64,000 bases of DNA from an uncultured bacterium (GTDB lineage: Bacteria; Muiribacteriota; Ozemobacteria; Ozemobacterales; Ozemobacteraceae): NCBI GenBank assembly GCA_964428355.1, contig CAYRYU010000004.1, positions 3,261-67,260 on the forward strand, given 5' to 3'. Below the pieces are notes generated by a model. The model was not told where the DNA came from, did not search any database, and was given only the letters and a program-made list of their open reading frames with translations. Positions 31,800 through 51,682 of this stretch are shown here, piece by piece. The position numbers were made by a program, and so were the translations under genes. How positions within the stretch are numbered: the first letter of the stretch is position 1; every line of letters begins with the position of its first letter.

Positions 31800-34700
31800 C
31801 CCGCGGTCTGGCAGGGGAACCAAGGAACCGTTGGGGGCTCCCCGCATGGTTCCTCTTGGTAATCCTTTTCTGGCTTCCCTTCGAATTCCTGTTGATGAAC
31901 GGACTGCACCGGTCACATGAAGCCTTGGTCGAAGGAGCGGATGGGATCGTCCGGAACCTCCTCAGGGGAAAGATCCTCGAGTTCAGATACCTTCTCCAGG
32001 CGGAAAACGCCCTTTCCGCGAGAATGAAAGTCGCGGTCGAGGTTGCCAGGACCTCCGGCTCTCCGGAAGAATGGTTCGGACGGGTGAAAGGGGCGCTGGG
32101 AGATTTCCCCGCGGGTTCCTTCGAACTGCTCTTGACCAATGGAAGAGAGGTCATACCGGTCACCCCCGGCTGGGATCCTGCGACACTCTCGCATTTTCTG
32201 GGGATCACCATCGAAAAGGCGGAATGCTTCTCCAATACCACACTGGCGGCGGCCTACCTTCGAAAACATATCTCGGACGCGGAATTCTTCGGGGTGGAAC
32301 GTTTCTCAAAATGGAAATGGATCCCTCTTCCCGGAAAGCAGGGATTCCCCAACCAGGTTTTCGATCGAAACTGGCTTCCGGATACGGTTTTCACGATCTA
32401 CCGGACACCGCGGAATACCTGGGGCGCTTTCGGCCGGGTTGGGGAGGAGGGTTGGACGTATCTGATCCGGTTCCACAGACAGAACCTTCCGGAGGGCTTC
32501 CTGTTGGGGATTTCCGACCAGGCGGCCCGCGAGCGGGGAATTCCGGTTACACGCGAAGGTTTCGGGCCCCCGGTTCCGGAAGAGTCGAAGCCCGGTTGGT
32601 TGAGCGAAATCCATGAGGCAATTTCCGGCAGGGGAGTGAGTCTGCGGGAGTTCGATGAAAAAGCGGGCTGGCTTGTGGGGCGCGGAAGGATTCCCCGGAG
32701 CCTCTGGGCTTTTCTGATCCTTGCGCATATCGCGAACTTCTTTCTGAGCATCGCAGCTCTGGGCGGGGTTTTCCGGCTTCTCCAGGGGGAAAGTTATGAC
32801 CGGTTGGCGGTTTCGAGGAAGGTTTTCCTCGGTTTGCTCGGAGGCGCGGGGTTGCCGCTGGTCTTCGCCCTCATCGCAACGGAGGGGGCAACGGGTGCCC
32901 GTATCTTCCGCGAAATCCAGAAAAGCCAGTTGGAAATGGACCAGTCCCTGCGGCTGATCGAGTCGGAGTTCGAGAAGTTCACCCAGGAGATCGGCCAGGA
33001 TCACCGGGAGGACGCGAAGGGGATAGAATACCCCTGGGACCCGGTTCGCGGGGAGAGATGGGTCGACCAGATGTCCACCCGACATGAGGTGATTTCCCAG
33101 ATTGAGGTGATTTCGTCGGCCGGGGTCAGGCTGACTGCCCGCGGACCCTTCTCCTGGTCGTGTTATCGTGCGTCCCGTCTTCCGAGAGAACCTCGGGAAG
33201 AACATTTCCGGAGGTGGTCGAGGCGGGGGTTCCTGTTTCTCAAGGAAGACCTCGACATGCTTTCCCTCGATGATCCCGGTCAGCCCTCCCCAACCAGTGA
33301 CAAGCTTTTCCGGCTCGTAACGGAGCTTGCGAAGAACAACCCAAAGATGATCAAGCTGAGGTTGATCGAGGTCCTAGGGAAGAGGGTCTGTGCGGCGGTG
33401 AACGGAATCGGGGACACGGGCTCCGAGGAATCGTCGGGAGGCGGTGACGCCCTGATCGAGGTGGCTTTCAAGGGACGCGATGCCGAATTCTTCCAGGACA
33501 TCCTGGTCTCGCTCGGGTTGCTCAAGCCGGTCCAGTTCGGAATGTTCAGGGGCCTTTCATTTTCCGACGTCGTTCGCGACAAGACAGGGCGGGCGCAGTT
33601 CTTCGTCGTGATCTTCCACCGGGTCTCCGACCTGACTGAGAAGTTCCTCTACCAGGTCGGCTCCCGCAGACTGTTTCCCGACCGGTACTCCTTCCTCGGA
33701 ATCTCGATGTTCTACGCCAAGGTGGATTTCGGAGGGGGCCTGGAAGAGAGCCGGAGGCTCATGGTGGAAGACCTTTTCACCGAGATCGGACAGAACTTCC
33801 ACGGGATCCTCCCCGACGAGGAGGGCTATCCCCGGCTGTTCGCGATCAGCCGGGGGCGGGGCACCCCTGATTACACTCTCGCCCTTTCCCTTCCCATGGC
33901 CGAAATCGCCAGGTCGATAATCCAGGAGAGACGGCTGCAGATTTCCTTCCTTCTTTTCCTGCTTCTTGCGCTGATCGGAATCTCCTGGTGGCTTCGGCGG
34001 TTGCTGTTGAAGCCGCTGGGCAACCTCCAGACCCTGGTGAACGCCATGGTCAACGGGACCTACGAAGGCCTCCGGATCGAACCCGGGATAGGGGAGCTGG
34101 GCACCCTGGCAGGCTTGTTTGCCGACACCCTCGACGGAATCCGGCAGATGGACATGGCCCGGATCATCCAGGACCAGCTCCTCCCTTCCGCCCCGGTCGA
34201 GGCAGGGGGATTCCGGATGGCCGGGAAGTCGCTGATGATGTCCCAGGTCGGAGGGGACTATTTCGACATGATCCCCCGCGGGAAGGACCGTCTTCTTCTC
34301 GTGGTCGGGGATGTATCCGGACATGGGCTTTCCGCCGCGATCATCGTGGCGATGATGAAATCGGGGCTGACCGCTCTCGCGGAGACCGACCTGGAACCCA
34401 ACGATATCCTCCAGCTGATCAATGGCGTGATGTTCAAGACGCTGGCGAGGAAGAAGATGATGACCGTTTTCCTCGGTAGCCTGGACGTAATCGGCGGCCG
34501 CTTCACCTACACGAACGCAGGCCACAACTTCCCCTACCTCCGCCAGCAGTATGGGGACGGGACATTCCTCAAGCAGGCGAATCTCCCGCTGGGCGCAGTC
34601 GTGACCCGAAAGTACAAGGTTGATTCGATAGTCCTGGGCAAGGGTGATCTCCTGATCCTTTACTCCGACGGAATAACCGAGGTGGTCAACCCTGCCGGAA

Positions 34701-34861
34701 AGATCCCGGGTTATGGGGGGGTGAAGGAGTTTTTGGATTCGGTGGAATCGAGAGACCCGCTGGTGGTTGTGCCCGCCGTGATCGAGTTCGCCCGCGGGTT
34801 TTCCCAGGGTGTCCCCTTCCAGGACGACCTCACCGTTCTTGTACTGAATCGCCTCGGATGA
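31796..34861 (+). CDS. Membrane sensor with HAMP and canonical PP2C-type (SpoIIE family) phosphatase domain
   Basis: 1021 aa, start overlapping the upstream stop (ATGA). Two TM blocks and a HAMP-like linker. The PP2C motifs are GGDYFDM, VVGDVSGHGLSAA, TYTNAGHNFPYL and LLILYSDGITE. It is a paralog of the preceding gene. Confidence 0.85.
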   Translation: MTRGLAGEPRNRWGLPAWFLLVILFWLPFEFLLMNGLHRSHEALVEGADGIVRNLLRGKILEFRYLLQAENALSARMKVAVEVARTSGSPEEWFGRVKGALGDFPAGSFELLLTNGREVIPVTPGWDPATLSHFLGITIEKAECFSNTTLAAAYLRKHISDAEFFGVERFSKWKWIPLPGKQGFPNQVFDRNWLPDTVFTIYRTPRNTWGAFGRVGEEGWTYLIRFHRQNLPEGFLLGISDQAARERGIPVTREGFGPPVPEESKPGWLSEIHEAISGRGVSLREFDEKAGWLVGRGRIPRSLWAFLILAHIANFFLSIAALGGVFRLLQGESYDRLAVSRKVFLGLLGGAGLPLVFALIATEGATGARIFREIQKSQLEMDQSLRLIESEFEKFTQEIGQDHREDAKGIEYPWDPVRGERWVDQMSTRHEVISQIEVISSAGVRLTARGPFSWSCYRASRLPREPREEHFRRWSRRGFLFLKEDLDMLSLDDPGQPSPTSDKLFRLVTELAKNNPKMIKLRLIEVLGKRVCAAVNGIGDTGSEESSGGGDALIEVAFKGRDAEFFQDILVSLGLLKPVQFGMFRGLSFSDVVRDKTGRAQFFVVIFHRVSDLTEKFLYQVGSRRLFPDRYSFLGISMFYAKVDFGGGLEESRRLMVEDLFTEIGQNFHGILPDEEGYPRLFAISRGRGTPDYTLALSLPMAEIARSIIQERRLQISFLLFLLLALIGISWWLRRLLLKPLGNLQTLVNAMVNGTYEGLRIEPGIGELGTLAGLFADTLDGIRQMDMARIIQDQLLPSAPVEAGGFRMAGKSLMMSQVGGDYFDMIPRGKDRLLLVVGDVSGHGLSAAIIVAMMKSGLTALAETDLEPNDILQLINGVMFKTLARKKMMTVFLGSLDVIGGRFTYTNAGHNFPYLRQQYGDGTFLKQANLPLGAVVTRKYKVDSIVLGKGDLLILYSDGITEVVNPAGKIPGYGGVKEFLDSVESRDPLVVVPAVIEFARGFSQGVPFQDDLTVLVLNRLG

Positions 34862-35671: not shown

Positions 35672-37747
35672 TCAGCGGAGGTCGACGACGAGGCATGTGA
35701 AATCGTCGTGAAGGTTGTCCGGTCCGGCGAATCCACGGACTTCCTTCAGGATGGCCTCCGCTGTCGCCTGTGGTGGAAGGGATGATGTCTCCCTGAAAAG
35801 TTTCCGGAGACGGTCCTCACCGAAGAAATCCCCTTGTTTGTTTCGCGCTTCCAGGACCCCGTCGGAAACGAGGAGAAGGCGGTCGTTGGTTGAGAAGCCC
35901 GTTGTCCGGTTCGTCAGTGGAACATCGTTACGCAAACCAAGGGGTGCGGATTCCGAAGGATGGGAGGCGATCTCCCCCATTTCTCCACCAAGTACAAGGA
36001 CGGCGGGATGACCAGCGTTCATGATGGTGATGGTTCCCGCTCCCAGGTCGATCCGGCAGTAGACCATCGTCACGAAAACCGACAGGCGTTCGAGGCGGGG
36101 TCCGATGTCCTTCTGAAGTTCTGCAATGATCGCTTCGACCCGGGGAAGGACCCCGTGCCCGCTTCCGACGAGCCGGGTAACGATCCTCAGGACGGCCTCC
36201 TTGGTCGATGCCCCGATCAGGGCCGCCGAGATTCCCTTCCCCATCACGTCTCCGATCACGATATCGATGATGTGATCGTTCAGGATGATGAAATCCGTGA
36301 AATCCCCGTCGACCAGGAGGGAGGGGCATGAACAGAGGCCGAACTCAGCCTTTTGGAGATTCCGGGGAGGCTCGCTTGCCAGCAACGTCTGCTGGATCTG
36401 GACGGCGGTATTCTCCTCCTGGAGACGCACCTGCCTCAACTCCTCCTCGATCCGTTTCCGGGGGGTTATCACCATCGCGATTATCATCCCGAACTGGACC
36501 TCGCCTGCGGGGTTCCGAACCGGGGCGAAACGCATCTCGTACCAGTCTTCCTTGAAAAACACTTCCATTGTGCTGTCCCTGCCTTTCAGGACTTCGCGGA
36601 TTCCCTGGTGGATCCCGGGAAAACGGTCTTCCGGGAAGAAATCCACGACAGGCTTGCCTTCGAGGGACTTCCGGAATCCCTTCAGGTTGCGAAGGTTCTC
36701 CCCGGCCGCCATAACGAATCGGATGTCTTGGTCGAAGAGAAGCACCATTCCGCTCGTGAAGTTCCGCATCAATGCACGGTATTTGGAATCCGTCGTCTGG
36801 AACTTCCTTTCCGCCCGGAAACGAAGCAGGGAGTTGGCGAACAGTTCGGCGGTAAGTCGGAGAAGGCTCAGGTCTTCATCGGCCCAGGCCCGGTCTGCCT
36901 GGCATCCATCCACTCCGAGATATCCGATGGTCCTTCCCTTGACTTTCAGCGGAAGACCCAGATGGGTGTGAATCCCCCGGCTCCGAAGGTATTCGATCTC
37001 CTGCTGGGACATCGGGGGGGAAACCAGGCACGAAGGCGAGTTGCACCTGCTCATGATCCCGGATGCCTTCGTGTTTTGGATTACGGAAAGGCTGATTCCC
37101 GAGATCCTGCCCTTGCGGCTGAAAATTCCCGAAAGGCTCCATTCGAAGACCTTTTCGACGGTCTTCTCGTCTTCTGAAAGCAGGAAAAGAAAGGCGTGGT
37201 CGGCCTGGATGTACCGGCCGATATTTTCCAGGCTGGAGGTAATCGTCGCCTCGATGTTCTCCCCGTCGATCATCAGGAATCCCGCGGAAAGCTTGCAGAC
37301 AAGAGCTTCGATCTCGAACCTCTTCTGGAAGATTGAAAGAAGCGGGTGTTCCAGGAGCGGATCCCGGCAGACAGCAAGGAATACATCCCCGTCTCCGAAG
37401 GGAACAGGAGAGAATTGTACCTGGAGGGGTTTGGCGGTTCCCTCGGAGGTGACGAAGGTGAAAATGTTCTTCCGCGAGGACGGCGGGATTCCCGTTTGGA
37501 AGAAGTGTTTCGCGGAATCGCTTTCCGCCGATCTCAGAAGGTCTGCCCAGTGGGCTCCGATGAGGTTGTGGGGTGTACGCCTGAGGGTCTTCTCGAAAAT
37601 GGGATTCACCAGCGTGATGATCCCGTTGAACCGGACTGCGAAGGCAGGTTGGTCGAGGGAATCGAGGAAATCCTGGAACTCCGGGGTGGACGTGGCCTCG
37701 GGATCGTGGCCCCAGTTTGGCCCAATTGCTTTCAGGGGGAATTCCAT
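35672..37747 (-). CDS. Cytoplasmic PAS-GAF-PAS PP2C-type phosphatase (RsbU / SpoIIE family)
   Basis: Sensory PAS/GAF-like regions (e.g. GRTIGYLGVDGCQ), then the C-terminal PP2C domain with VDGDFTDF, VIGDVMGKGISAAL, ITIMNAGHPAVL and LLLVSDGVLEA. The start at MEFPLK (37747) or at the track M1 (37786) is uncertain. Confidence 0.8.
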   Translation of the reverse strand: MEFPLKAIGPNWGHDPEATSTPEFQDFLDSLDQPAFAVRFNGIITLVNPIFEKTLRRTPHNLIGAHWADLLRSAESDSAKHFFQTGIPPSSRKNIFTFVTSEGTAKPLQVQFSPVPFGDGDVFLAVCRDPLLEHPLLSIFQKRFEIEALVCKLSAGFLMIDGENIEATITSSLENIGRYIQADHAFLFLLSEDEKTVEKVFEWSLSGIFSRKGRISGISLSVIQNTKASGIMSRCNSPSCLVSPPMSQQEIEYLRSRGIHTHLGLPLKVKGRTIGYLGVDGCQADRAWADEDLSLLRLTAELFANSLLRFRAERKFQTTDSKYRALMRNFTSGMVLLFDQDIRFVMAAGENLRNLKGFRKSLEGKPVVDFFPEDRFPGIHQGIREVLKGRDSTMEVFFKEDWYEMRFAPVRNPAGEVQFGMIIAMVITPRKRIEEELRQVRLQEENTAVQIQQTLLASEPPRNLQKAEFGLCSCPSLLVDGDFTDFIILNDHIIDIVIGDVMGKGISAALIGASTKEAVLRIVTRLVGSGHGVLPRVEAIIAELQKDIGPRLERLSVFVTMVYCRIDLGAGTITIMNAGHPAVLVLGGEMGEIASHPSESAPLGLRNDVPLTNRTTGFSTNDRLLLVSDGVLEARNKQGDFFGEDRLRKLFRETSSLPPQATAEAILKEVRGFAGPDNLHDDFTCLVVDLR

Positions 37748-37795
37748 TTCGAAGAGCCTCCCGGTCAATTCAGAGCACGGCCCCATTTAATATTG

Positions 37796-38467: not shown

Positions 38468-40969
38468 TCAGCGAAGGAAAGGGCCGTCGACGCCGATCTT
38501 GCCGGTACCGTTCAGTTCCCAGATCCCGGCCGAGTTGGACTTGACGGTGAAGGAAATGTCGGGGGACCCTGTTGCAACCTGGATCTGGCTTCCCGTGACC
38601 GCGTCCCGGTAGTTTCCAGGTCTGACGCGCTCGACCGTGATCTCCTGGTCGGCTCCCGTCGAGAGGCCCACCACGACGTAGCTGGTTCCGTTCTTGAAGT
38701 CCCGTACGAAACTGATCCCGTTGTCCCATTCCTTGCCGTTCGAAACGGTTCCCATCTGGAGGGCTGGAATCCGCGACCGGATAAAGTTCAACCGCTTCAG
38801 GTGCTGATGGATCGCGTTGCTCTGGGTCATCGGGAGCTGGGAGTCCGTCAGCTTGTCTCCGAAATATGCCAATCCGGTCTGGGCCAGGGTCGAGTTCGAG
38901 TTGGGGAAACCGATGGGAGCACCTTTCTGGAATTCCACTTCTTCCCCGAACCAAAGGCACGGAATTCCACGCATCGTCCACAGGAGGTTGTATGCTATCG
39001 CGGCTTTCCATGACTCTCCCCCGAAACGGCTCATGTGGTCCGGGCCGTGGCCCCGGGTCTGGTTCTGGAAGAAGGTGATCAGGAAAGTGGGATCGCCGTA
39101 GATCCAGTCCCATGTGATGGTCGTCGCGATCCCGCCGAAAGCTCCGGATGCGATGCAGGAGTAAAGTTGATCCTGGAGAACGTAATCCAGGACTCCGATT
39201 CCCGAGGCTCCGCCCGAGTCGGGATTGTTCGGGTCGGTTCCGGTCCGCGAATACCACCACGGGGTCAGCTCTGAAGGGAGTTTGTCGGGTCCGAGCATAC
39301 CCAGGCCCGTCCCGAAGGGGGGGACGTTCGCGCCCACGAACAACCCGGGCTTGTGTTCCTTCCAGATGCTGTAGAATGAGGGAAGTTCGCTCCGGCTGGT
39401 GAAGACGGCATCCTCGATGACGACGGCATCGACTCCCCAATCGAGATACCGGTTCACCGCCTGGTTGATGTAGTTTTTCACGAGCCAGTTCTCGGTGGCA
39501 AGATCGAGCATGTTCTTGCCCCAGTGCATCCCCTGCACGTTCGCCACGGTCACCTCGTCGGTGGATTGAACCCAGCCGTTCCTGTGGTACCACTGTGAAT
39601 CGAGGGTCTTCTCGTCGGTCCCGAAGAAACGTTCGGAATCGTAACCTTCCTTGGGAAGCACGGTTCCGGTTTTCTGGTCGGTGAGGGGGCCCTTCCCCCA
39701 GGGGTCGCTGATCAGGAGATCCTTGAACCAGTCGGGTGCCAGGCGGTTGTCGTTGTCTTCGCGGAAGGGGTGCTTGTAGTTTCCCAGGTTGAAGACATAG
39801 GGCCAGGGGACTTTCATCCCCGCTGCCCGATAGAACTTGTGGGGGAGTCGATCGACGAAGACCTTGCCGCGAATCCCGTAGTTGCAGGAATGGTTCAGGA
39901 CCACCGACTGGATGACCCGGATTCCCCGGTCGTGGGCGGCAGTGATCAGATCCGTGAAGGAAGCGCCCGCGGATTCCAGGCGCGGATCCACGGTGTCCCA
40001 GTCGTAGGCGAAGAATCCGTCGAAATCCAGCCCACCGCGGTTCTCCACGGGTGGGGAAAGGAGTATCGCGGTAAATCCCAGGTTCCGGATGTAATCGAGC
40101 CGGTCGATGAGACCCCGGAAATCGCCCCTCCAATGTGGGTCGCCCTTGGCAACGCGTTCACGGCAGTAAAAGTCGTTGTCTTCATTTCCGTTGTAGAACC
40201 GGGTCGTGAGAACGGAGTAGATCGTTTCGGACCGGAAATCCCGGTCGAGGGAAACCTGATTCTCGACGGTGATCGTCAGGGAATCCTCGGCGGTGTTCCC
40301 CGAATCGTCCGTCACCGTCAGGACGACCTCGTACACCCCTTCGAGATCATACCGCATCGTGGCCTGCATACCGGACAAGCCGTTGCTCCATGCGTAGCTG
40401 GCGATGGTCCCATCGGGGTCATACGAGTCGCGGGCATTGAACTGGACGATGGTTCCCGGTGCCACCCTTTGATCCTCCCCGGCCCGGGCGACCGGGGGAA
40501 TAGCCCCTCCCGCGGGAGTGAAAGAATAACTTCCGTCGGTCTCGTCGAAACGGATCCGATACTGGGTTCCCGCCGGAATGGTGACTTTCAGGTTCCCTCC
40601 CTGGCGTTTAGTGATTCCCGAGAGTCCGGAGGGGGGCTCGGCGGGATCGAGACCCCACCAGACCTGCCATGTCCGGTTGGCGACAAACCGGAATTCGTGC
40701 GTTCCCGAGGAAACGAATGTGAAGGTTTCCCAAAGGCGGCCTTCGGGGTTTTTCAGCAGGCCGTAGGTGTCACCGAGGTTCCATCGGTTGTTGAGTCCCG
40801 TTATCTGGAGGGTCTTGTACCCTGATTCGCCAACCGGGTAGGTGGGTTGGGGCAGAGGGCCCGGGGTTCCTTCGGGGAGTCCGGGTTCCTGGGCAAGGAT
40901 TCCAGGGGATAGCATGATCACCACCTGGACAATCACCAGGAAAAGCGTCACCCGGAAATCATGAAGCAA
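38468..40969 (-). CDS. Secreted GH13 alpha-amylase-family glycoside hydrolase with N-terminal starch-binding-like and PKD-like domains
   Basis: Catalytic-region motifs VVLNHS, GVDAVVIEDA and FGEEVEF. A PKD-like segment (DPDGTIASYAWSNG...VVLTVTDDSGN). Signal peptide VTLFLVIVQVVIMLSPGILAQEP. Putative TTG start near 40969; the ORF's long upstream part is Arg/Gly-rich and unlikely to be translated. Confidence 0.75.
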   Translation of the reverse strand: MLHDFRVTLFLVIVQVVIMLSPGILAQEPGLPEGTPGPLPQPTYPVGESGYKTLQITGLNNRWNLGDTYGLLKNPEGRLWETFTFVSSGTHEFRFVANRTWQVWWGLDPAEPPSGLSGITKRQGGNLKVTIPAGTQYRIRFDETDGSYSFTPAGGAIPPVARAGEDQRVAPGTIVQFNARDSYDPDGTIASYAWSNGLSGMQATMRYDLEGVYEVVLTVTDDSGNTAEDSLTITVENQVSLDRDFRSETIYSVLTTRFYNGNEDNDFYCRERVAKGDPHWRGDFRGLIDRLDYIRNLGFTAILLSPPVENRGGLDFDGFFAYDWDTVDPRLESAGASFTDLITAAHDRGIRVIQSVVLNHSCNYGIRGKVFVDRLPHKFYRAAGMKVPWPYVFNLGNYKHPFREDNDNRLAPDWFKDLLISDPWGKGPLTDQKTGTVLPKEGYDSERFFGTDEKTLDSQWYHRNGWVQSTDEVTVANVQGMHWGKNMLDLATENWLVKNYINQAVNRYLDWGVDAVVIEDAVFTSRSELPSFYSIWKEHKPGLFVGANVPPFGTGLGMLGPDKLPSELTPWWYSRTGTDPNNPDSGGASGIGVLDYVLQDQLYSCIASGAFGGIATTITWDWIYGDPTFLITFFQNQTRGHGPDHMSRFGGESWKAAIAYNLLWTMRGIPCLWFGEEVEFQKGAPIGFPNSNSTLAQTGLAYFGDKLTDSQLPMTQSNAIHQHLKRLNFIRSRIPALQMGTVSNGKEWDNGISFVRDFKNGTSYVVVGLSTGADQEITVERVRPGNYRDAVTGSQIQVATGSPDISFTVKSNSAGIWELNGTGKIGVDGPFLR

Positions 40970-41034
40970 GGTACGGGGAAGTTCACTCCCCCGCTTCCGA
41001 CGTCCTCCGAGGAGACCGCGTCCGGAGGCGTGAT

Positions 41035-41529
41035 TCAATGGCAGGTGAGTCCGTTGGGAGAGTTTTCCGCCTGAACCTTCAGCGCGATTGCCTCGGAGAA
41101 TGCCTCCGTCGTCGCTTCCGGCCCATCGCCGAAGTTGAGGTGTGACCCGGAGTTCCACTCGCAGAAAACGGTGCGGTGGGTTCCGTCATCCCGGAAGCCG
41201 AACTCGAGGGTGAAAAAACGGGGCTGCCCCTTGGAGTTGGTTTTCTTGGGAAGGTAACATCCCACCAGGATCGCTTCCGCAATGATTTCCGCCGGGGGAA
41301 GGGCGATGATCGCAAGGGTGGAATCTGGGGAGTTTCGCAGATCGAGGGAGATCTGTTCGTGCGGAAGGACCTCCTCTTTGGGAAGGTCGTCCCCAACGCG
41401 GTCCCATACGGCTTCGAGAAAACTCCTTCCCTGCTTCTTCAAGGCGCTGATGAACCGTTGGGGCTCCGTGAGGAACATGTTCCGCATCGCGACGTGGGCG
41501 AAGATGTAGTGGTGGTTTCTCGGTTGCAT
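41035..41529 (-). CDS. Hypothetical protein, likely co-transcribed with the macro-domain gene
   Basis: 164 aa with normal composition and no recognisable motif; starts 45 nt after the macro-domain gene's stop. Confidence 0.5.
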   Translation of the reverse strand: MQPRNHHYIFAHVAMRNMFLTEPQRFISALKKQGRSFLEAVWDRVGDDLPKEEVLPHEQISLDLRNSPDSTLAIIALPPAEIIAEAILVGCYLPKKTNSKGQPRFFTLEFGFRDDGTHRTVFCEWNSGSHLNFGDGPEATTEAFSEAIALKVQAENSPNGLTCH

Positions 41530-41573: not shown

Positions 41574-42113
41574 TCAGGAGTTTTGTGGAATCTGCGACTC
41601 CAGGGCTTTTTCGAAGATTCCCAGGTCACCGACGGACCAAAGGCAGAAGATCACTTCCCGGAGGCTGGATGGACCCGCTGAAAGGAAATCCCGCGTGGTG
41701 GAAATCATGATCTTGGCGCAGATGTCCTTCGGGAAGCCGAAGATCCCCGTGCTGATGGCTGGAAAGGCGACGGTCTCGATTCCGAGTTCCGAGGCCCTTC
41801 GCAGGCTGTTGAGGGTGGCGTTCTTGAGTTTCATGTCTTCATTGCCCTCCCCTAGACGTGGGCCGACGGCATGAATGACGTATTTTGCCTTGAGTCGTCC
41901 TCCCCCGGTCACCACTGCCTGCCCGACGGTGGTTCCGCCGAGCTGGTAGCACTCGTCCTGGATCGTTTGTCCGCCCCGGGCAAGGATCGCCCCGGCGACC
42001 CCACCTCCAAGGACGAGCCTGTCGTTGGCTGCATTCACGATCGCGGCAACTTCCAGGTCGGTTATGTCCCCCTGGATGAGGCGGATTGTCTTTCCTCCCA
42101 CTGTCCTGTCCAT
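41574..42113 (-). CDS. Macro-domain protein (ADP-ribose binding / O-acetyl-ADP-ribose deacetylase, YmdB / MacroD-like)
   Basis: ATG at 42113 (MDRTVGG) with AAAGGA RBS. Macro-domain motifs IVNAANDRLVLGGGVAGAI, VIHAVGP and ISTGIFGFP. Confidence 0.75.
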   Translation of the reverse strand: MDRTVGGKTIRLIQGDITDLEVAAIVNAANDRLVLGGGVAGAILARGGQTIQDECYQLGGTTVGQAVVTGGGRLKAKYVIHAVGPRLGEGNEDMKLKNATLNSLRRASELGIETVAFPAISTGIFGFPKDICAKIMISTTRDFLSAGPSSLREVIFCLWSVGDLGIFEKALESQIPQNS

Positions 42114-42194
42114 GGTCGTTTCCTTTCTATCGCCCGTGCAGTTCCAATTATCGATGATATCATGGGTTTCCGGGGGGGGCAAGGGCGGGGGCGC

Positions 42195-45100
42195 TCAAAC
42201 CGTTGTCTCATCGGCTGGGTTGAAGAGGTATGCCTCGACGGATCTCGTCTTTCCCTTAATGGGGGGGAGCTTGAGCCTCCGAAGGCCTTTCACCAGGTCC
42301 GCTCGGGAGGATTCCCCGACGAGACGGAAGGTCCCCTCCGCAACGACTACCCCGCCGACCGATCCGTGGTAGTCGGGAAGCACGGTTCCGTCCTTCGAAA
42401 CGCGCAGGGAGATGTCTCCAAGACGGGATGCGAGGTTGACCGTATCCCCGATGACGGTGTATTCGAGCCGGACCTCATCCGTGCCCATGATTCCAGCCAG
42501 GACAGGTCCGGAGACGATCCCAATCCCGAGGGGGTTTCCCCCGAGTTCCGGGATCTCGGCCATCCGCCTCCTCATCTCGACTGCGGCCTGGAGGGCGGCC
42601 CCCGCAGCTTCCCGGGGGCCTCCGAGTCGGCTGGGATGGAAAACCGCGAGAACCTTTTCGCCGATGAACTTGTCGATGTCACCCTTTCGGCCTCGGATGG
42701 TCCGTGCCATGGTTTCGAGGAAGCGATTGAGCGTGTGGACAAGGGTCCCCGGCGGGATGGTGGCCATCAAGTGCTTGAAATCGGCAATTCCAGCGAACAG
42801 AACGGTGACCTCGATGTTTTCCCCCTTCTGGGCCGAGTCGCCCCGCTCGCGGTCGCTCGCGGCGACGCGGACGGACTCCGAAACGAACCGGCTAAGGAGG
42901 CGACCTTCCTCCACCCCGGCTGCCATCGAATTGAAGGCTTTCGCGAGGCGTCCGAATTCCCCGCCCGTGCCCTCTTCGAGCCTCGTTTTGAAGTTCCCCC
43001 CCATGATCTCCCGCGCCGCATCCGAAAGGGCGAACACGGGAACCAGGAATCGTCGAGCGATGCTCCAGGCCAGGATCACCGAAAGAAGCAAGATGAAGGC
43101 CAGGAAAACCCGCTTCAGATCGCGGACCGCGTCCCCCTGCTCGAGGATTTTTCCGATCGGGATCTCTCCGATCAGGAGGTTCGTCTTGAGCGCGTTTCCG
43201 GATACGCCCGTCATGAGAAATTCCTCTCCGTTCCTGTCTACCCTTTTCGACCAGGTATTCTGGCTGGACCCTGTCAGGATAGCCAGATCGACGTATTCCG
43301 GGGGGGGCGGTGTGGTCAAAGACTTGAATTTGACCACGTTTTCATCACGAGGTGTCGGATAGACCATCGGAGGCCAATAGATTACTCCAGGAAACCTCTT
43401 GAAACCGATGTTGTATCGTGGTCCGAACGGACCACACGATCGGGAGGATTTCCCGAGGGCGTTGAAAAGCTGGAAATCGACGGCATCCTTGTTCAGATTC
43501 GTCTGAAAGCTGTACCGGGGATATTTCCCGTACCAGAGGTGGGTGCGCAGGAAGCACTCCTGGCCGCTGAACGTCACCATGTCCGACATCGCCTTCGGCG
43601 CAAGGAGCATCTCCGCCCCTCTTTCGGGTGGGATGATGGCCATGAGGAGTGCCCTGAACTCTTCGATTCCGGCTCCAAGCAGGAGGTTCTCGGTTTCCCC
43701 TGCAAGGCCTTTTCCGGCGGTGAATTCGGGGTTCAACTGTTTCAATGGAGGGGTACTGAACTCGTTCATCAGCGACATGACGAGGGAATTGTTCTTCTGG
43801 TCCTCCTCCTCCTCGGGATCGGCAACCTCCCCCTCCGGTTCGTCCCCACGGGTGTTGAAGCTGAGAAAGAACCGGCCGGGACCAGTCAGAAGGATCCGAT
43901 ACACGGGGTATCCCATGTTCCGCGATGCCACGTAGAAACGCTTCAGGAAAGGAGTCCCCTTGGTCCGCATTTCCTTCTTGTTCAACTTCTCGAGCTCGTG
44001 GAACTCCCGGACGCATCCCTTCCGCCTGGCAAGGGTGGTGGTAACCCTGTTCGCCCAGCCGAGGTACAGGTCCCTGGCCTCGTCGAGCGCACGGAGTGAG
44101 TGTGCCAGGGACTGTGCCCTGCTGGCTTCTTCCCGGAGCCGTGCTTCCTGGAATGACCGCTCCGTGACGAGTGCCGCGAAAGCGATCGCGGGAACGACAA
44201 GCAGGAGGAACATACCCGCAAGCTGGACGAAAACCGAGATCGCAAGGGGTTCCTTCCGGAATACGAACTTCCGCATCATCCAGGTCCCGAGGAGGAACCA
44301 GAACAAAGTCAGCATGGAGGCTGACGTCAGCAGGGTCTTGAACGGTGAATCACGGGTCGGGACAGGGCGTGCCGCCACGACGAGAAAGGAGTTTTCCCTC
44401 AAAACAGGTTCCGAGGTGATAAGCCAATCATTTGAAACGGACTGGCTCGCCACCGGGGAGTCAGTTTCGAGCCATCGCTTCAGTTCCGGGTAGCGGAGGA
44501 AGGTCCGGTCGTCGTCCGTCCACACCTTGCGGTTTCCGGAAGCGACATCCGTCTGGACCACCGCCAGCTTGCAATCGTGGCTCTGAAGGTTCTTCATCAG
44601 CAGGCGGACTGCCAGATCAAAGGTGAGGGTTTCGGGATCGAGAAGGAAGGCGGCTCCCCCACGGAACGTCGCCCGGGTGAAACCTTTCAGGTCCTTTCCG
44701 ATCAGGTTGCTGTCGGGGCCCTTCCGAAGTTCCCTGAAAAAGGCGGGATCGAAGAAGGGGTGGACCAACAGATATCTTGTCTTGCCAAAGGGACTGACAG
44801 GTATGAGATTGTCGGTTGCCGTATCCCCCAGTTCCCTGAGGTCGTCGATCTTGAGCAGGGAGGTCCAGCTTCTGCGGAACTCACCATCCAGATACGGGTC
44901 CACGACTCCGTAGAGCAGGGTCTTGTAGTAGGCCAGGAAGTCCCGCCACTCCACCCGGTTGAAGGGAATGCTCCGGCCTATCGTGGGAAACAACCTGGTT
45001 CCCAACCGGTTGCCCAAGGTTCCCACCCCTGTTTCAAGCTGGGGGCAATGAAGGAACATCGAACAGGAGATACCGGGGAAGAGCTTCTGGAAATCCTTTC

Positions 45101-48100
45101 CGCGGCCCGCGAGGAATTCGAAAATCCTTTGGGGTCCGTGGGAGGGGTCGAGTCCCGCGGCCTCCGCCGTTGCCAGAGTTTTCCTGAGGAAAAGGGTTGC
45201 CTGGGTCTTCGGATCGATCGAGTTGGCGGCCAGCTTCACAGTTTCCTTCAGTTCCCCGAGATGCTGGTTTCTCCAGCGTTCGAGGTCCCTCTGGTCGTTT
45301 GCCCAGAGCGCGTAGATAAGGAGGGCGGGGGGAACCACCAGGAGGAATAGGAGTTGCCAGATTGCATGAAGATGGGTTTGGCCCCCGCTTTGTCGGGCGG
45401 CCCCGGGGGAAACCTGCGGAGTCGGGCCCTCGATCGCTTCCTCAGGGGAAGGGGAAACGCCGGATGGGGATCCTCTCACCTGTGGGGAAGCAGGCGCCGG
45501 GCCGCCGGCTTGGCAATCCAAGGGTGGCACTGACCTCGCTCCGGTGCCCGAAGGCGGCTTGGATTCGCCCGCGGGAACCGGCTCAGGAACATCAATGGGG
45601 GCCGATTTCGTCTCCGGCAGTGGGAGACCCGTGCAAGGTCGGGTGGGGGATTCCCCGCCGGTGCCCGCGCTTGATGAAGCCTCGCCCTCCTGGCGAGCTC
45701 CGTGCACGCCGCCCTCCCTGGACGTCAGGCCCGGAGAAGCCTCGCCCTCCTGGCGAGCTCCGTGCACGCCGCCCTCCCTGGACGTCAGTTCCCAGCAGTT
45801 GGGGTTTGAGGGGTCCTCCAGGGGGATGAAGGGGAAATCCTCCCCCGCGAGTTTCCTGACCTTGTCGGAACAGATGATGAGCCGGGCTTTTCCTTTTTTC
45901 GATGCCGCCTCCAGATCGTTCGCCCGTTTGAAGGGTTCCCCCAGGACGGTGAAGTCGAGCCGTTCGAGGGGATCTCCGAGGACCCCGGTGACGACCTCCC
46001 CGATCTCGATCCCGATCCCGATAAAGTATGGGAACCGCCCTGCAGCCTGCCGCTGGTCGTTGAGGTTCCGGTGCGCATCCATCATGTCGGATGCTGCAAA
46101 AAGGGCGCGTCTGACCATGGACTCCCCCTTGCCGGGGTAGAAAACCGCCTGGATCGCGTCTCCGATGAACCGGTCGATCGCTCCGCCGTGTTTCTGGATC
46201 GCCCGGGTCATTACCTGAAGGTGGCTGTTGATCAGAGCGAAGATTTCCTTCGGGGGGTGGGCTTCGGACATGGTGGTGAAGCTCCGGACATCCGAGACCA
46301 TCAAAACGACCTCACGGTGCCGGGGTTGACAGGCCTTGTCGAAATCGCCCTGGCCAACCACCTCTAGAACCTGGGGGGCGACGAAACGGCTCATCACGGT
46401 TCGCTCACGGAGCCAATCCGTCATCTGGTCGAGGGTCCGGCTCGCGTCTCCGATCTGGTCCGCCCGGTTTTCCCTTACCCGCACCTCGAGGTCTCCCGAA
46501 GCGATCCGGTCGAGTCCTGCGGTCATCCGAACCAGTGGGGAAGCCAGCCACCGAGAGAGAGCCGTCCCTCCAATGAATGTCACGACCAACAGCAGAAGGA
46601 TGGCTGACGCAATCTTTACCTTCTCGAAAAAAATGAAGGACTCGACGGGCTGGAAAGTCGTCACCGCGGTGAGGATGAACCCCGGCATGCGGGTGCTTCG
46701 CAGTGCGACCATGAAGTGCTGGGGATCAGGTGAGAACAGGGTTCCCCGGCGGACCTTCCGGGCGGCGAGGGCGGAAGCCTCATCCCTTTCCTGGATCGCC
46801 ACGGGTTCCAATCCCTGGGGTTCGTCCTTGAATGCCGCGAACCTGATTTTGGGATGGCCGGAGTTGACCCGACGGATCTCCTTCTCCAGAAAATCCCTGA
46901 AGACGGGCTCCTGATCCCAGAAAAGGAAGATGATGTTCCTGACCTTTCCTTTGGAAAGGATCTGGTTGAAATACCGGGTGGAGTGTCGGGAGCCCGCCTG
47001 GAAGAGGTGAAGCACGTTCGGGTCGCCCAGCAGTTCCCGGTTCCGCTTGTAGAAGCCCTGATAGCTCATCGCCATTGCGTTCCGGAACCTCGTGATCTTC
47101 GTCCAGGAAGGGGGCGGGGCGTCAGGGGAGTCCGTCACGGAGCCGCTGTTTCCGCCGAGCATTCTGACGAGTTCGAGGGAGATCACGAGGTGGAAAAGCT
47201 TCATGGACCACTGTGTCTCACCCTTGAAAATGCTGTCCGGGGGAAAGAAGAAGATGGCTTGGGGGCCTCCAAGGATCATCACGGCAGAGGGTTTGTCACC
47301 TGCAGGCTTTCCGTCCGTGGTCTTCCTTCGGGGCCACCTTTGGAAGACCTTTTCCTCGAGAAGTCGGTCGATGGCCCTCTCTCTGGATCCGCCGTCCAAA
47401 GAATCCAACGCGTCAAGGGCGGGTCCAAGGTCAGGATCGAGGGAGATGTTCCTGCAAGCCTGGAGGAAACGAAGGTTTTCCTGCATGCTTCCGGTGTCGA
47501 TCCTCTGGAGGGTCTGCTCCAGTTCGTCGCGCAGGGCGAACTCCGAGGTCGCGGAAAGGTCTTCGGAAAGCCGGATTCCGGCAGTTGCCATCAGGGTGAT
47601 CGGGATCGCGATCAGTCCGATGAACCAGAGATACAGCGAGGTCCGGATCCTGAAACCCCCAATCCTTCCGCGAAGATGAAGGAAGGCGAAAGTGGGCAAC
47701 CAGCAGAAAAGAATGCAACAGCCATACACGTTCGCGACCCCTTCAAGAATCGTGCAGGGCGGGCGGGGAATCCGGGACACAAGAACGCCCACATAACCGA
47801 TGATCGGATCCAGCGCGGTAAGGAAGAAACGGAACCCTCCCATTTCGATCGACTCTCCGAACTCGCGCGGGAAAAGCGAGACCTCTCCGACCTGGAATTC
47901 GGGTCGTCGTGGGGAAACGGTCATTCTGCGACGGAGCTTTTCGAGCAGACGCCTCATTCCCGGTCGTTGAAGGGCGGGGTGAAAGATCCCTGCTCCGGTA
48001 CCCCCGCGGCCTGTGACAGGGAACGGCAGGAAAGCCGGAAACATCCTTGGGGAGGAGGGGGGTACGTATTTCCCCCAGTTCCGGATCGCGGCCCGCAGAC

Positions 48101-48821
48101 CGATGTTCTGGAATCCGGACGCGATCTGGAAGACCATGAAGTAAACCACCGTGTTTTTCCCGGGGGGTGTTTTGAGGACGTTCCATATCGCGATCGAATG
48201 GCGCTGCTGGAAGATCACGAAAAATGGCCGTCCCATCTGCCCGCGGCTGAAAAGGTCCGGAGTGCAGGCTTCGCCGAATGTGGTTTTCAGAATGCCCGAT
48301 TTCGCCTCAACCTGGCTGGGGCTTTGTTCGCAGTCCAGCAGGGTTTCCCGGAAAACTCCCGAGAAAACCGTCCGGAAGGTGGTTTCGAACCCCTTGAGTG
48401 TTACCAGGGATGCGGGTCCGTTGGCGCCCTCGGGAAAACGGAAAGCCCAGATCCGGAAGGGGGGGACTCCAGGGAGTCGGCATCGCGTGCGGGCATGGTG
48501 GAATGCCGATTCGATCCGTCCGGTCGAAAGAAGCTCCCGCCCGCCGAACGTTTCGAACTCTCCGAGAAACCGCTGACTCACTTCCCGGATCCAGAACTTC
48601 GGGTCGGTGATGACCTGGAACTGTTTCGAAACCTGGCGGACTTCATCGAGCCATTTCCGTTGGGAGTTCGCTTCTTCCAGGGCAAGAAGGCCCGTGTAGG
48701 AAGCCTTCGAAAAGCGGAAGCCCCTGAGTTCGGCCTGGAGTATCAGGAACGGGATCAGGCTTATGAAAAAGGGCAGGATGATTCCCGGACCATGGACCTT
48801 CCGCGATTTGTCACCATTCAT
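42195..48821 (-). CDS. Giant (2208-aa) membrane protein containing two complete HAMP plus class III nucleotidyl cyclase modules in tandem
   Basis: Single uninterrupted ORF. Module 1 comprises TM helices, a HAMP (LASPLVRMTAGLDRIASGDLEVRV...), a cyclase domain (VVLMVSDVRSFTTMSE, IDRFIGDAIQAVFYP) and a Pro/Gly-rich linker carrying the 60-bp repeat. Module 2 is a second TM/periplasmic block, a HAMP (FALSDAAREIMGGNFKTRLEEG...) and a second cyclase (VLFAGIADFKHL, DKFIGEKVLAVFHP, EYTVIGDTVNLASRLGD). Confidence 0.8.
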   Translation of the reverse strand: MNGDKSRKVHGPGIILPFFISLIPFLILQAELRGFRFSKASYTGLLALEEANSQRKWLDEVRQVSKQFQVITDPKFWIREVSQRFLGEFETFGGRELLSTGRIESAFHHARTRCRLPGVPPFRIWAFRFPEGANGPASLVTLKGFETTFRTVFSGVFRETLLDCEQSPSQVEAKSGILKTTFGEACTPDLFSRGQMGRPFFVIFQQRHSIAIWNVLKTPPGKNTVVYFMVFQIASGFQNIGLRAAIRNWGKYVPPSSPRMFPAFLPFPVTGRGGTGAGIFHPALQRPGMRRLLEKLRRRMTVSPRRPEFQVGEVSLFPREFGESIEMGGFRFFLTALDPIIGYVGVLVSRIPRPPCTILEGVANVYGCCILFCWLPTFAFLHLRGRIGGFRIRTSLYLWFIGLIAIPITLMATAGIRLSEDLSATSEFALRDELEQTLQRIDTGSMQENLRFLQACRNISLDPDLGPALDALDSLDGGSRERAIDRLLEEKVFQRWPRRKTTDGKPAGDKPSAVMILGGPQAIFFFPPDSIFKGETQWSMKLFHLVISLELVRMLGGNSGSVTDSPDAPPPSWTKITRFRNAMAMSYQGFYKRNRELLGDPNVLHLFQAGSRHSTRYFNQILSKGKVRNIIFLFWDQEPVFRDFLEKEIRRVNSGHPKIRFAAFKDEPQGLEPVAIQERDEASALAARKVRRGTLFSPDPQHFMVALRSTRMPGFILTAVTTFQPVESFIFFEKVKIASAILLLLVVTFIGGTALSRWLASPLVRMTAGLDRIASGDLEVRVRENRADQIGDASRTLDQMTDWLRERTVMSRFVAPQVLEVVGQGDFDKACQPRHREVVLMVSDVRSFTTMSEAHPPKEIFALINSHLQVMTRAIQKHGGAIDRFIGDAIQAVFYPGKGESMVRRALFAASDMMDAHRNLNDQRQAAGRFPYFIGIGIEIGEVVTGVLGDPLERLDFTVLGEPFKRANDLEAASKKGKARLIICSDKVRKLAGEDFPFIPLEDPSNPNCWELTSREGGVHGARQEGEASPGLTSREGGVHGARQEGEASSSAGTGGESPTRPCTGLPLPETKSAPIDVPEPVPAGESKPPSGTGARSVPPLDCQAGGPAPASPQVRGSPSGVSPSPEEAIEGPTPQVSPGAARQSGGQTHLHAIWQLLFLLVVPPALLIYALWANDQRDLERWRNQHLGELKETVKLAANSIDPKTQATLFLRKTLATAEAAGLDPSHGPQRIFEFLAGRGKDFQKLFPGISCSMFLHCPQLETGVGTLGNRLGTRLFPTIGRSIPFNRVEWRDFLAYYKTLLYGVVDPYLDGEFRRSWTSLLKIDDLRELGDTATDNLIPVSPFGKTRYLLVHPFFDPAFFRELRKGPDSNLIGKDLKGFTRATFRGGAAFLLDPETLTFDLAVRLLMKNLQSHDCKLAVVQTDVASGNRKVWTDDDRTFLRYPELKRWLETDSPVASQSVSNDWLITSEPVLRENSFLVVAARPVPTRDSPFKTLLTSASMLTLFWFLLGTWMMRKFVFRKEPLAISVFVQLAGMFLLLVVPAIAFAALVTERSFQEARLREEASRAQSLAHSLRALDEARDLYLGWANRVTTTLARRKGCVREFHELEKLNKKEMRTKGTPFLKRFYVASRNMGYPVYRILLTGPGRFFLSFNTRGDEPEGEVADPEEEEDQKNNSLVMSLMNEFSTPPLKQLNPEFTAGKGLAGETENLLLGAGIEEFRALLMAIIPPERGAEMLLAPKAMSDMVTFSGQECFLRTHLWYGKYPRYSFQTNLNKDAVDFQLFNALGKSSRSCGPFGPRYNIGFKRFPGVIYWPPMVYPTPRDENVVKFKSLTTPPPPEYVDLAILTGSSQNTWSKRVDRNGEEFLMTGVSGNALKTNLLIGEIPIGKILEQGDAVRDLKRVFLAFILLLSVILAWSIARRFLVPVFALSDAAREIMGGNFKTRLEEGTGGEFGRLAKAFNSMAAGVEEGRLLSRFVSESVRVAASDRERGDSAQKGENIEVTVLFAGIADFKHLMATIPPGTLVHTLNRFLETMARTIRGRKGDIDKFIGEKVLAVFHPSRLGGPREAAGAALQAAVEMRRRMAEIPELGGNPLGIGIVSGPVLAGIMGTDEVRLEYTVIGDTVNLASRLGDISLRVSKDGTVLPDYHGSVGGVVVAEGTFRLVGESSRADLVKGLRRLKLPPIKGKTRSVEAYLFNPADETTV
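45676..45795. repeat. 60-bp tandem direct repeat (2 copies) inside the giant cyclase gene, homolog of the 19.6-kb repeat on the opposite strand
   Basis: gaagcctcgccctcctggcgagctccgtgcacgccgccctccctggacgtcag... at 45676-45735 and 45736-45795. It encodes PGLTSREGGVHGARQEGEAS twice in the gene's frame. The reverse complement aligns gaplessly to the 19621-19752 unit at about 44 of 60 positions with the same 60-nt period. Confidence 0.85.
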
Positions 48822-48911
48822 CTGCCGTGGTTGGATCCTCTTCTTGGCTTGACACCACGGACCACATTATAATAAATATCCCGCACCCAGTAAACCGAAA
48901 GGACCCCCCCC

Positions 48912-50725: not shown

Positions 50726-51514
50726 TCAGCGCCGAGGCTGCGGGATTCCCCCATTGTGGAGTGAGTCGAAAGAGGTTTTGGCCTTTAGGAGGTCGATAAC
50801 CGACTTTTCCTCTTCCTCGACCGCCCAGTCGAGAGGGGTTTTGCCTTCCTTGTCCTTCGCGTTGGGATCAGCGCCCTTGGAAAGGAGAAACTCGACGGCT
50901 TCCTTTTCGCCGGCCGCGGCGGCGGCGTGCAGGGGAGTGATTCCGTCCTTGTCCGCGACTTTCACGTCCGCGCCCTTTTCGACCAGGATCTTGTAGATTT
51001 CGACCCGGCCGACGAGGTCTTCTTCGCCGTCCCCTGCAGCGTAATGGAGGCAGGTCATCCCGATGTTGTCGGTGGCCTTTACGTCAGCTCCCTTGGCGAC
51101 CAGGAGTTCAATGACGTCGGTGTTGGCATCGGCGGCGGCCGTGAAGAGGGCGGAAACGCCGTCGTTGTCCTTCAGGTTGACGTCGGCCTTCCCGTCGATC
51201 AGCAGAAGGGCGGTTTCGGTGCAGTTGCCCTCCGCGGCGATCATGAGGGGGGTGGTTCCATCGGCGTCCTTGGCGTTGACATCGGCATTTTTGCCCAGGA
51301 GCAGCTTCACGATCGCGACCTGGTCTTCGGAAACGGCAATATGGAGCGGTGTCTCGGCTTTGGGGGTCTTGGCGTTCACTGCGGCCGGGGTTTTGGCGAG
51401 AAGCGCTTCGATCTTCTTGAAGTCACCCGCCTTGACCGCGGTATGGATTGCCGCGGCGAAAGCGGAGCCCGAAAGCATGAAACCGACGAGAACCAGGGCG
51501 ACGAGTTTCTTCAT
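50726..51514 (-). CDS. Secreted ankyrin-repeat protein
   Basis: ATG at 51514 with GGAGG upstream; signal peptide MKKLVALVLVGFMLSGSAFAAA; 6-7 ANK repeats (TPLHIAV..., TPLMIAA..., TCLHYAA..., TPLHAAAAAG...). Confidence 0.75.
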   Translation of the reverse strand: MKKLVALVLVGFMLSGSAFAAAIHTAVKAGDFKKIEALLAKTPAAVNAKTPKAETPLHIAVSEDQVAIVKLLLGKNADVNAKDADGTTPLMIAAEGNCTETALLLIDGKADVNLKDNDGVSALFTAAADANTDVIELLVAKGADVKATDNIGMTCLHYAAGDGEEDLVGRVEIYKILVEKGADVKVADKDGITPLHAAAAAGEKEAVEFLLSKGADPNAKDKEGKTPLDWAVEEEEKSVIDLLKAKTSFDSLHNGGIPQPRR

Positions 51515-51682
51515 TTGTCCAGGAACCTCCATCGTCGAATTGGGGGAATTCACCCCGCTGACATGACAAGCATAACGGAAACGACCCTTCAGGTCAATGG
51601 CGGTCGGACCGGGATGGAAATTTTGCGTGGGATCGGGAAATCGCATATAATGGAGTCATAGAATGATACCGGGGGGGAACAG

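Follow-up and report, generated by a model that had tools for sequence, protein, structure and literature searches.

We analysed a 64,000-nucleotide window of contig CAYRYU010000004.1, from an uncultured bacterium of the Ozemobacteraceae, in which one open reading frame (ORF) on the minus strand (42195..48821) encodes two membrane-bound class III cyclase modules in a single chain. We consider, with a probability of about 0.8 and on sequence evidence, that this ORF is explained by a class IIIb adenylyl cyclase that forms a pseudo-heterodimer within a single chain and has eight predicted transmembrane (TM) helices. Each half ends in a cyclase homology domain (CHD), and the two domains, termed CHD-N and CHD-C, have lost catalytic residues reciprocally.

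The frame holds 2208 codons and a stop without any internal stop, and an identical protein (P0001) is on record at NCBI. An earlier note on this DNA had described a single ORF of 2208 amino acids (aa) whose halves each possess their own TM block, HAMP and class III cyclase domain; the frame is indeed continuous, and Pfam and hydropathy agree with this composition of the halves. The note had also proposed a catalytic plus regulatory pseudo-heterodimer comparable to the C1/C2 halves of eukaryotic adenylyl cyclases, which is now strongly supported by reciprocal degeneracy in 98 tandem representatives and, at Riflebacteria genome loci, in N-type (69) and C-type (65) domains. Its description of the second CHD as non-canonical at the metal positions was borne out by the alignment to class IIIb structures (FAGIADF, with G2011; IGE, with E2055). 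However, the first CHD is non-canonical too, reciprocally (R884, K965, and D969), a degeneracy that the note had missed.

Reciprocal catalytic residues in the two cyclase domains

To map the catalytic residues, both CHDs were aligned to the class IIIb structures OaPAC (5x4t) and CyaB (3r5g) and to each other. Scanned singly, both halves match the Guanylate_cyc family PF00211 (CHD-N 48.1 bits, CHD-C 50.2 bits; gathering threshold 21.9), which places both CHDs among the class III nucleotidyl cyclases. The first metal Asp is D844 in CHD-N and G2011 in CHD-C, the adenine Lys is R884 and K2051, and the second metal Asp is D888 and E2055, respectively. Similarly, the Thr/Asp position is T958 and T2122, the transition-state Asn is K965 and N2129, and the transition-state Arg is D969 and R2133. 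Neither CHD is fully canonical (D,R,D,T,K,D and G,K,E,T,N,R), and the six residues that a self-sufficient homodimer-type enzyme holds in one CHD are complete only across both. On this alignment, CHD-N reads as C1-like, with the metal ligands only, and CHD-C as C2-like, with the substrate and transition-state residues only. The polypeptide combines the features of a pseudo-heterodimer, namely two non-identical CHDs and a reciprocal loss of catalytic residues.

Class III active sites lie at the interface of a head-to-tail dimer, to which opposite subunits contribute the metal set and the substrate and transition-state set of residues. Because the two sets are on opposite subunits at this interface, an N:C pair would have one complete and one dead site, and because the loss is reciprocal, N:N or C:C pairs would be without any complete site. 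In the IIIb subclass, the substrate-defining Asp is reportedly replaced by Thr, giving a Lys/Thr pair (Linder & Schultz 2003). This pair is present in CHD-C as K2051 and T2122, and the nearest relatives are IIIb enzymes: the top PDB matches of the CHDs are CyaB, OaPAC, bPAC, CyaC, CyaB1, and soluble adenylyl cyclase (sAC), all of class IIIb. The Lys/Thr pair and these relatives predict ATP as the substrate and cyclic AMP (cAMP) as the product.

To extend this observation to the family, module 1 was searched exhaustively with HMMER against 1.84 billion cluster representatives, which gave 460 matches at E<=1e-30; the protein-family counts below rest on the best 150 of these. They comprise 98 proteins with two CHDs (about 1900-2400 aa) and ~40 complete single-module proteins of 950-1045 aa that end just after the CHD, all of which, with module 1 as the query, are C1-like. 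In the tandem representatives, CHD-N retains the first metal Asp in 97 of 98 and the second in all 98, but Asn occurs in 8 and Arg in 6 of them. The first Asp is found in 4 of 98 CHD-C domains (mostly Gly, Ala, Ser, or Thr instead), which keep Lys (97/97), Thr (96/97), Asn (97/97), and Arg (96/97); at the second metal position, CHD-C has either Asp or Glu. The genome loci described below show the same distribution. Their 69 N-type domains carry the first Asp in 68, the second in 69, Asn in 8, and Arg in 6, and their 65 C-type domains carry the first Asp in 2, Lys in 65, Thr in 64, Asn in 65, and Arg in 65. Additionally, on the dead-site side of CHD-N in the Riflebacteria loci, Arg or Lys occupies the Lys position in 68 of 69 and an acidic residue the Arg position in 48 of 69; this partial conservation hints at a function there.

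This conservation bears on another explanation, in which both CHDs are degenerate and the protein is a nucleotide-binding or scaffolding pseudo-enzyme instead of a cyclase. No CHD alone has the full catalytic set, and CHD-N has Arg in place of the adenine Lys, as such an explanation would expect. However, the residues of the composite site are strictly conserved on the correct partner throughout the family, indicating purifying selection for catalysis, and the variable positions are those facing the dead site. We therefore regard a pseudo-enzyme as very improbable.

A word-indexed protein search recovered two members with the full protein and two with an eight-sequence profile; with the sensor alone it recovered no member, the query included, and was nearly blind to this family. 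Its sole family relative, P0002 (2134 aa, from a metagenome of the Joint Genome Institute, JGI), is collinear with the window protein at 32% identity and has an identical residue pattern. Public databases list members of the family under generic names, such as 'class 3 adenylate cyclase' at JGI.

Two exceptional proteins were observed in the family. In P0069 (1971 aa), both CHDs are canonical (DKDTNR/DKDTNR), resembling an undiverged linked dimer. In P0072 (2111 aa), the polarity is inverted, with HKDTNR followed by DKDTNG, that is, a C2-like domain first and a C1-like domain second. An unrelated protein of odd architecture, P0003 (2997 aa), joins several FtsX/MacB-type permease repeats to a HAMP and a canonical cyclase domain.

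Fused and split genes and the origin of the two halves

A pattern scan of species-representative genomes yielded 212 confirmed relatives, and 70 loci were kept; a first scan of genomes with two-sequence patterns gave no match. Every taxon-named locus among the 70 belongs to Candidatus (Ca.) Riflebacteria or the Ozemobacteraceae (phylum Ca. Rifleibacteriota). Each sampled Riflebacteria genome carries 5-12 or more paralogs; Ca. Ozemobacter sibiricus BY5 has at least five genes, and one metagenome-assembled genome (MAG) has 12 loci. At this copy number, the family may play a major part in how an uncultured phylum senses its environment. ORF and hidden Markov model analysis identified complete fused N-then-C ORFs at no fewer than 40 genome loci from independent MAGs, and the fused genes, found in dozens of independent MAGs, share 25-40% identity. 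Moreover, full-length fused paralogs lie head-to-tail, three in L006 (3338-22825) and two in L062 (4013-17474), showing that gene amplification is ongoing in Riflebacteria.

To find split genes, we scanned metagenomes with the single-module proteins as queries. At split loci, an N-type gene is directly followed by a C-type gene. The former (about 970-1030 aa) has both metal Asp residues and is without Asn and Arg; the latter (about 975-1033 aa) keeps Lys, Asn, and Arg, and its first metal Asp is changed to Arg, Ser, or Thr. Both genes are complete in L073, L077, L079, L083, L086, L089, L091, and L092, the N gene is truncated by the contig start in L076, L080, L081, and L088, and L010 is a genomic example. 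The order is reversed in L095 and L096 (5350-10798), where a C-type gene (GKQTNR) lies upstream of an N-type gene (DRDLRY). Module 1 of the window protein aligns with split N genes across nearly its full length, and module 2 aligns with split C genes from TM2' onward. Since both halves are collinear with the split genes, the fused gene corresponds to the two split genes taken together, N then C, and may plausibly have arisen when adjacent genes fused. In a crude neighbour-joining tree, fused and split forms fall into large, mostly pure clades with at least six changes of state; fusion or fission may have occurred more than once, and the tree is too unreliable for counting events.

The existence of split operons in relatives invites the objection that the fusion is an assembly or sequencing error in a repeat-bearing, GC-rich linker and that the true state is a split operon. 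A perfect 60-bp repeat in the linker is of the kind that assemblers can mishandle, and several MAG copies (L037, L041, L042, and L059) have frame breaks. These four were rejected as true splits: they are broken, frameshifted fused genes in which the N-frame continues through the linker into TM1', whereas genuine split N genes stop within ~5-35 aa of the [WFY]E[LV] motif. The linker of the window protein consists of 141 in-frame codons without a stop and without a Met codon to start module 2. Furthermore, other MAGs independently provide more than 40 complete fused ORFs, in addition to ~98 tandem cluster representatives. An artefact of this kind is scarcely credible. The frameshifts or runs of N in L037, L041, L042, and L059 lie inside or just after the linker, and these copies either are pseudogenes or reflect misassembly of GC-rich, low-complexity linkers in MAGs of low coverage.

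The linker itself is rich in Pro and Gly and carries the 60-bp repeat, as the earlier note had stated; composition and Tandem Repeats Finder (TRF) confirm both. It spans 137-141 aa, and the surrounding residues 1001-1180 are 14% Pro, 13% Gly, 11% Ser, and 10% Ala. The repeat (100% identical copies, TRF score 226) encodes LTSREGGVHGARQEGEAS(PG) twice at aa 1012-1049, a 20-aa unit at the very start of the linker, and neither its peptide nor its DNA occurs a second time in the family or the window. Across 45 complete fused genes, the linkers are 29-471 aa long (median 60), of low complexity, and not conserved. We interpret the duplication as in-frame slippage private to this sequence, within a hypervariable tether, and not as the cause of the fusion. 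The duplicated unit contains the motif G-V-H-x-A, as GVHGA at aa 1018-1022, and P0002 has GVHEA once, immediately following CHD-N; the first linker residues may still be part of the C-terminal strand of CHD-N.

The locus of Ca. O. sibiricus (L002) is partly syntenic with the window: its upstream ankyrin-repeat gene is 45% identical and its downstream PKD-amylase gene 54% identical to the neighbours of the window cyclase, making its fused gene a likely ortholog. Because this copy is fused and has no repeat, the fusion is judged to be old and not mediated by the repeat. The earlier suggestion of a recent, repeat-mediated fusion of two adjacent genes was thus retained for the adjacent genes, as collinear N-then-C operons indicate, and abandoned for the recent date and the repeat: the gene is fused in dozens of MAGs, the L002 copy is without the repeat, and family linkers are not conserved. 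Comparison of orthologs likewise gave both organisations, with the likely ortholog fused and N-then-C split operons in other relatives.

The same note had spoken of duplicated sensor modules. Instead, the sensors are two different modules: pairwise BLASTP shows no similarity between the sensor regions of halves 1 and 2, and in the family comparison N and C modules have weak cross-similarity that is confined to the TM2/TM3 hairpin area. The two HAMP-CHD units are 25% identical when the halves are aligned directly. A recent internal duplication of one module was rejected in view of this low identity and the absence of BLASTP similarity between the sensors. From their sequences, the N and C modules appear to be old paralogs.

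Architecture and gene neighbourhood

Each half of the protein has the order TM1, region A, TM2/TM3 hairpin, region B, TM4, HAMP, and CHD (Table 1). Scanned singly, both halves exceed the gathering threshold of HAMP PF00672 (25 bits), and in both modules the HAMP match directly follows the last TM helix. Both HAMP-CHD units and the linker are predicted to be cytoplasmic, and four regions of ~320-350 aa are predicted to be extracytoplasmic. These four regions have no Pfam match in the window protein or in eight family members, and a 33-sequence family profile found no PDB match outside HAMP and CHD. Region A of module 1 is homologous to the equivalent region of split N-type genes and carries the conserved motifs LPGVP, GFET, PFFVIFQ, and FPAFL; region B of module 2 is homologous to split C-type genes. 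CHD-N terminates in a CWEL motif, the point at which stand-alone N-type proteins end, and CHD-C carries an IKGK motif (aa 2188-2191). A promoter-like site was sought on the minus strand between the modules and none was found, and Rfam and tRNA scans of the window gave no match.

Table 1. Positions of the cyclase features in the window
Feature	Residues (aa)	Position	Strand	Evidence
Tandem two-module membrane class III cyclase ORF	2208 + stop	42195..48821	-	ORF, Pfam
Sigma-70-like promoter, TTTACT-17-TATAAT, 45 nt upstream of ATG		48866..48894	-	Consensus match only
TM1, module 1	14-32	48726..48782	-	Hydropathy 2.14; PFFISL motif kept in P0002
Extracytoplasmic region A, module 1	33-361	47739..48725	-	Pfam, PDB: no match
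TM2 (362-383), short basic loop, TM3 (398-416), hairpin of module 1	362-416	47574..47738	-	Hydropathy
Extracytoplasmic region B, module 1	417-736	46614..47573	-	Pfam, PDB: no match
TM4, module 1	737-755	46557..46613	-	Hydropathy 2.43
HAMP 1	755-802	46416..46559	-	PF00672, 42.0 bits
CHD-N, C1-like	830-1012	45786..46334	-	Pfam, alignment to solved cyclases
Cytoplasmic low-complexity linker, Pro/Gly/Ser/Ala-rich	1013-1153	45363..45785	-	Composition
Perfect 60-bp tandem duplication, 1.9 copies, in frame		45676..45788	.	TRF
TM1', module 2	1154-1172	45306..45362	-	Hydropathy 2.18
Extracytoplasmic region A, module 2	1173-1496	44334..45305	-	Pfam: no match
TM2' (1497-1516, weaker, 1.48), RKFVFRK loop, TM3' (1530-1552)	1497-1552	44166..44333	-	Hydropathy
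Extracytoplasmic region B, module 2	1553-1904	43110..44165	-	Pfam: no match
TM4', module 2	1905-1923	43053..43109	-	Hydropathy 2.36
HAMP 2	1921-1970	42912..43061	-	PF00672, 51.4 bits
CHD-C, C2-like	1997-2208	42198..42833	-	Pfam, alignment to solved cyclases

Upstream of the cyclase lies an ankyrin-repeat gene (50726-51646, minus strand, 306 aa), and a gene 45-49% identical to it precedes the cyclases in L002 and L027, suggesting a conserved neighbourhood of fused cyclases. A Macro-domain gene (41574-42182, minus strand; PF01661, 132 bits) begins 12 nt past the cyclase stop codon and, given this spacing on the same strand, is probably co-transcribed with it; it has no match in the Ca. O. sibiricus locus. 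Two large genes for SpoIIE/PP2C-type phosphatases lie nearby (31796-34861, plus strand; 35672-37786, minus strand), of which one has PAS-GAF-PAS sensors and one, of 1021 aa, has no assignment for the first 800 aa from its N-terminus. With the cyclase included, signalling genes are densely clustered in this part of the window. Furthermore, a PKD-alpha-amylase gene (38468-41158, minus strand) neighbours the window cyclase, and a GDE_N/GDE_C gene lies directly upstream of P0002 (L001, 3594-5579). The presence of a glucan-metabolism gene at both loci may be coincidence.

Proposed mechanism and comparison with known cyclases

In the proposed mechanism, CHD-N and CHD-C of one chain would pack head-to-tail to form a single competent site, with TM4-HAMP1-CHD-N paired with TM4'-HAMP2-CHD-C. 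The Mg-ATP site would take the metal ligands D844 and D888 from CHD-N, and the adenine residues K2051 and T2122 and the ribose/transition-state residues N2129 and R2133 from CHD-C. The dead pseudo-site would be formed by G2011 and E2055 of CHD-C and by R884, T958, K965, and D969 of CHD-N; as a possible regulatory pocket, it could bind a regulator, by analogy with forskolin or bicarbonate in eukaryotic enzymes. HAMP1 would pair with HAMP2 in a hetero four-helix bundle, and the signals of two unlike sensor modules would merge into one cAMP output. The disordered linker would be a mere tether of CHD-N to TM1', and its 60-bp duplication a private, neutral change of length. We infer the physical intramolecular dimer, the hetero-HAMP bundle, ATP as the substrate, and the regulatory dead site. 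As for its evolution, a 4TM-HAMP-CHD gene would have duplicated into an obligate pair of N-type and C-type genes, the pair would have fused in Riflebacteria, and the fused gene would have expanded into many paralogs.

The same complementation could also take place between two chains, with CHD-N of one pairing with CHD-C of the other. In that case, the HAMP and TM helices would bundle as homodimers (N:N and C:C), and the complex would contain two active sites. Bacterial receptor HAMP and TM sensor domains are normally homodimeric, and a flexible linker, both at its length here and over the range in the family, does not force intramolecular pairing. On the other hand, each split operon has a single N gene and a single C gene, which fits a 1:1 N:C unit, some family linkers are only 29 aa long, and HAMP1 and HAMP2 share ~25% identity, as heterodimer partners may; none of these points is decisive. 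We regard inter-chain pairing as rather unlikely.

Several points weigh against the single-chain pseudo-heterodimer. Intramolecular and inter-chain (swapped) pairing are not distinguishable from the present data. The 4+4 TM topology is a prediction, in which TM2' is weakly hydrophobic. For the sensor regions, neither Pfam nor the PDB profile search pointed to a fold or ligand, and AlphaFold2 models of each half, from a two-sequence alignment, reached a predicted local distance difference test score of 34.9 and 31.4 and were unusable. Additionally, metal binding by E2055 is still conceivable in principle, and Asp is retained at this position in half of the family.

Pseudo-heterodimeric adenylyl cyclases have been regarded as a eukaryotic invention, and a 2022 review describes the two-halved, C1/C2-type arrangement as unknown in bacteria. 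The full-text literature, incomplete for subscription journals, gave no account of cyclases from Riflebacteria or of any bacterial class III cyclase that is fused or heterodimeric. The bacterial family would represent the same solution, reached with two different membrane sensor halves. The stages of its evolution appear to be extant, namely a fused canonical form (P0069), subfunctionalised N/C gene pairs, fused chains, and a form of inverted polarity (P0072). Because split operons and fused versions coexist, the route through duplication, subfunctionalisation, and fusion is directly testable by comparison. Taken jointly, the observations give roughly even odds to a broader reading: a large, undescribed Riflebacteria family of class IIIb adenylyl cyclases that are obligate hetero- or pseudo-heterodimers and would be the first bacterial equivalent of C1/C2, with the stages of its evolution extant, a dead site acting as a regulatory ligand pocket, and integration of two inputs. 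The bacterial proteins may express more easily than mammalian adenylyl cyclases, which would suit them to modelling asymmetric cyclase regulation; they could also be used as a natural receptor scaffold with two inputs.

Compared with known systems, the window protein shares a membrane anchor, a HAMP or helical transducer, and a CHD with the Mycobacterium tuberculosis enzymes Rv1625c/Cya and those of the HAMP-containing Rv3645 and Rv1319c type and with Pseudomonas aeruginosa CyaB, and the closest solved CHDs are those of CyaB (3r5g), CyaC (1wc0), OaPAC, and bPAC. Homodimeric bacterial class III enzymes have the six catalytic residues together in a single CHD and build two symmetric sites, whereas the window protein has no complete CHD and links its two CHDs covalently. 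That such heterodimers can work is indicated by complementary engineered Rv1625c mutants (Guo et al. 2001, as summarised in PMC9552081). The alpha/beta guanylyl cyclase of animals, which is soluble, and the chytrid RGC/NeoR (PMC7655827) are obligate heterodimers encoded by two genes and resemble the split operons in combining two incomplete products into one site; in contrast, they are eukaryotic, unfused guanylyl cyclases with H-NOX or rhodopsin sensors.

Mammalian sAC (ADCY10; PDB 4clf, 4oya) is likewise a IIIb enzyme with tandem, non-identical CHDs, one active site, and one regulatory pseudo-site for bicarbonate. It was found as a sequence relative, with a similarity far weaker than that of cyanobacterial and Pseudomonas homodimeric IIIb cyclases. 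However, sAC is soluble, with C1 and C2 adjacent at the N-terminus and without TM helices, sensor, or HAMP between them, whereas the window protein has eight predicted TM helices and CHDs ~1000 residues apart, with a full sensor module in between, and does not belong with ADCY10.

A parallel in layout is seen with the eukaryotic membrane adenylyl cyclases AC1-9 (class IIIa; TM1-C1-TM2-C2), which also combine two membrane domains and two CHDs in one chain, with a variable segment between the halves. In both, the first CHD gives the metal Asp pair and the second gives Lys, Asn, and Arg, leaving one active and one degenerate site. A bacterial cyclase with a single module, duplicated and fused, has been proposed as the origin of AC1-9 (PMC9552081). 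In contrast to AC1-9, the window protein has four predicted TM helices per half instead of six, large extracytoplasmic regions, a HAMP before each CHD, the IIIb Lys/Thr pair instead of the IIIa Lys/Asp pair, a bacterial host, and extant split two-gene relatives. With four TM helices per half, Thr at the Asp position, and HAMP domains, it is an analogue of AC1-9 and not a member of that group.

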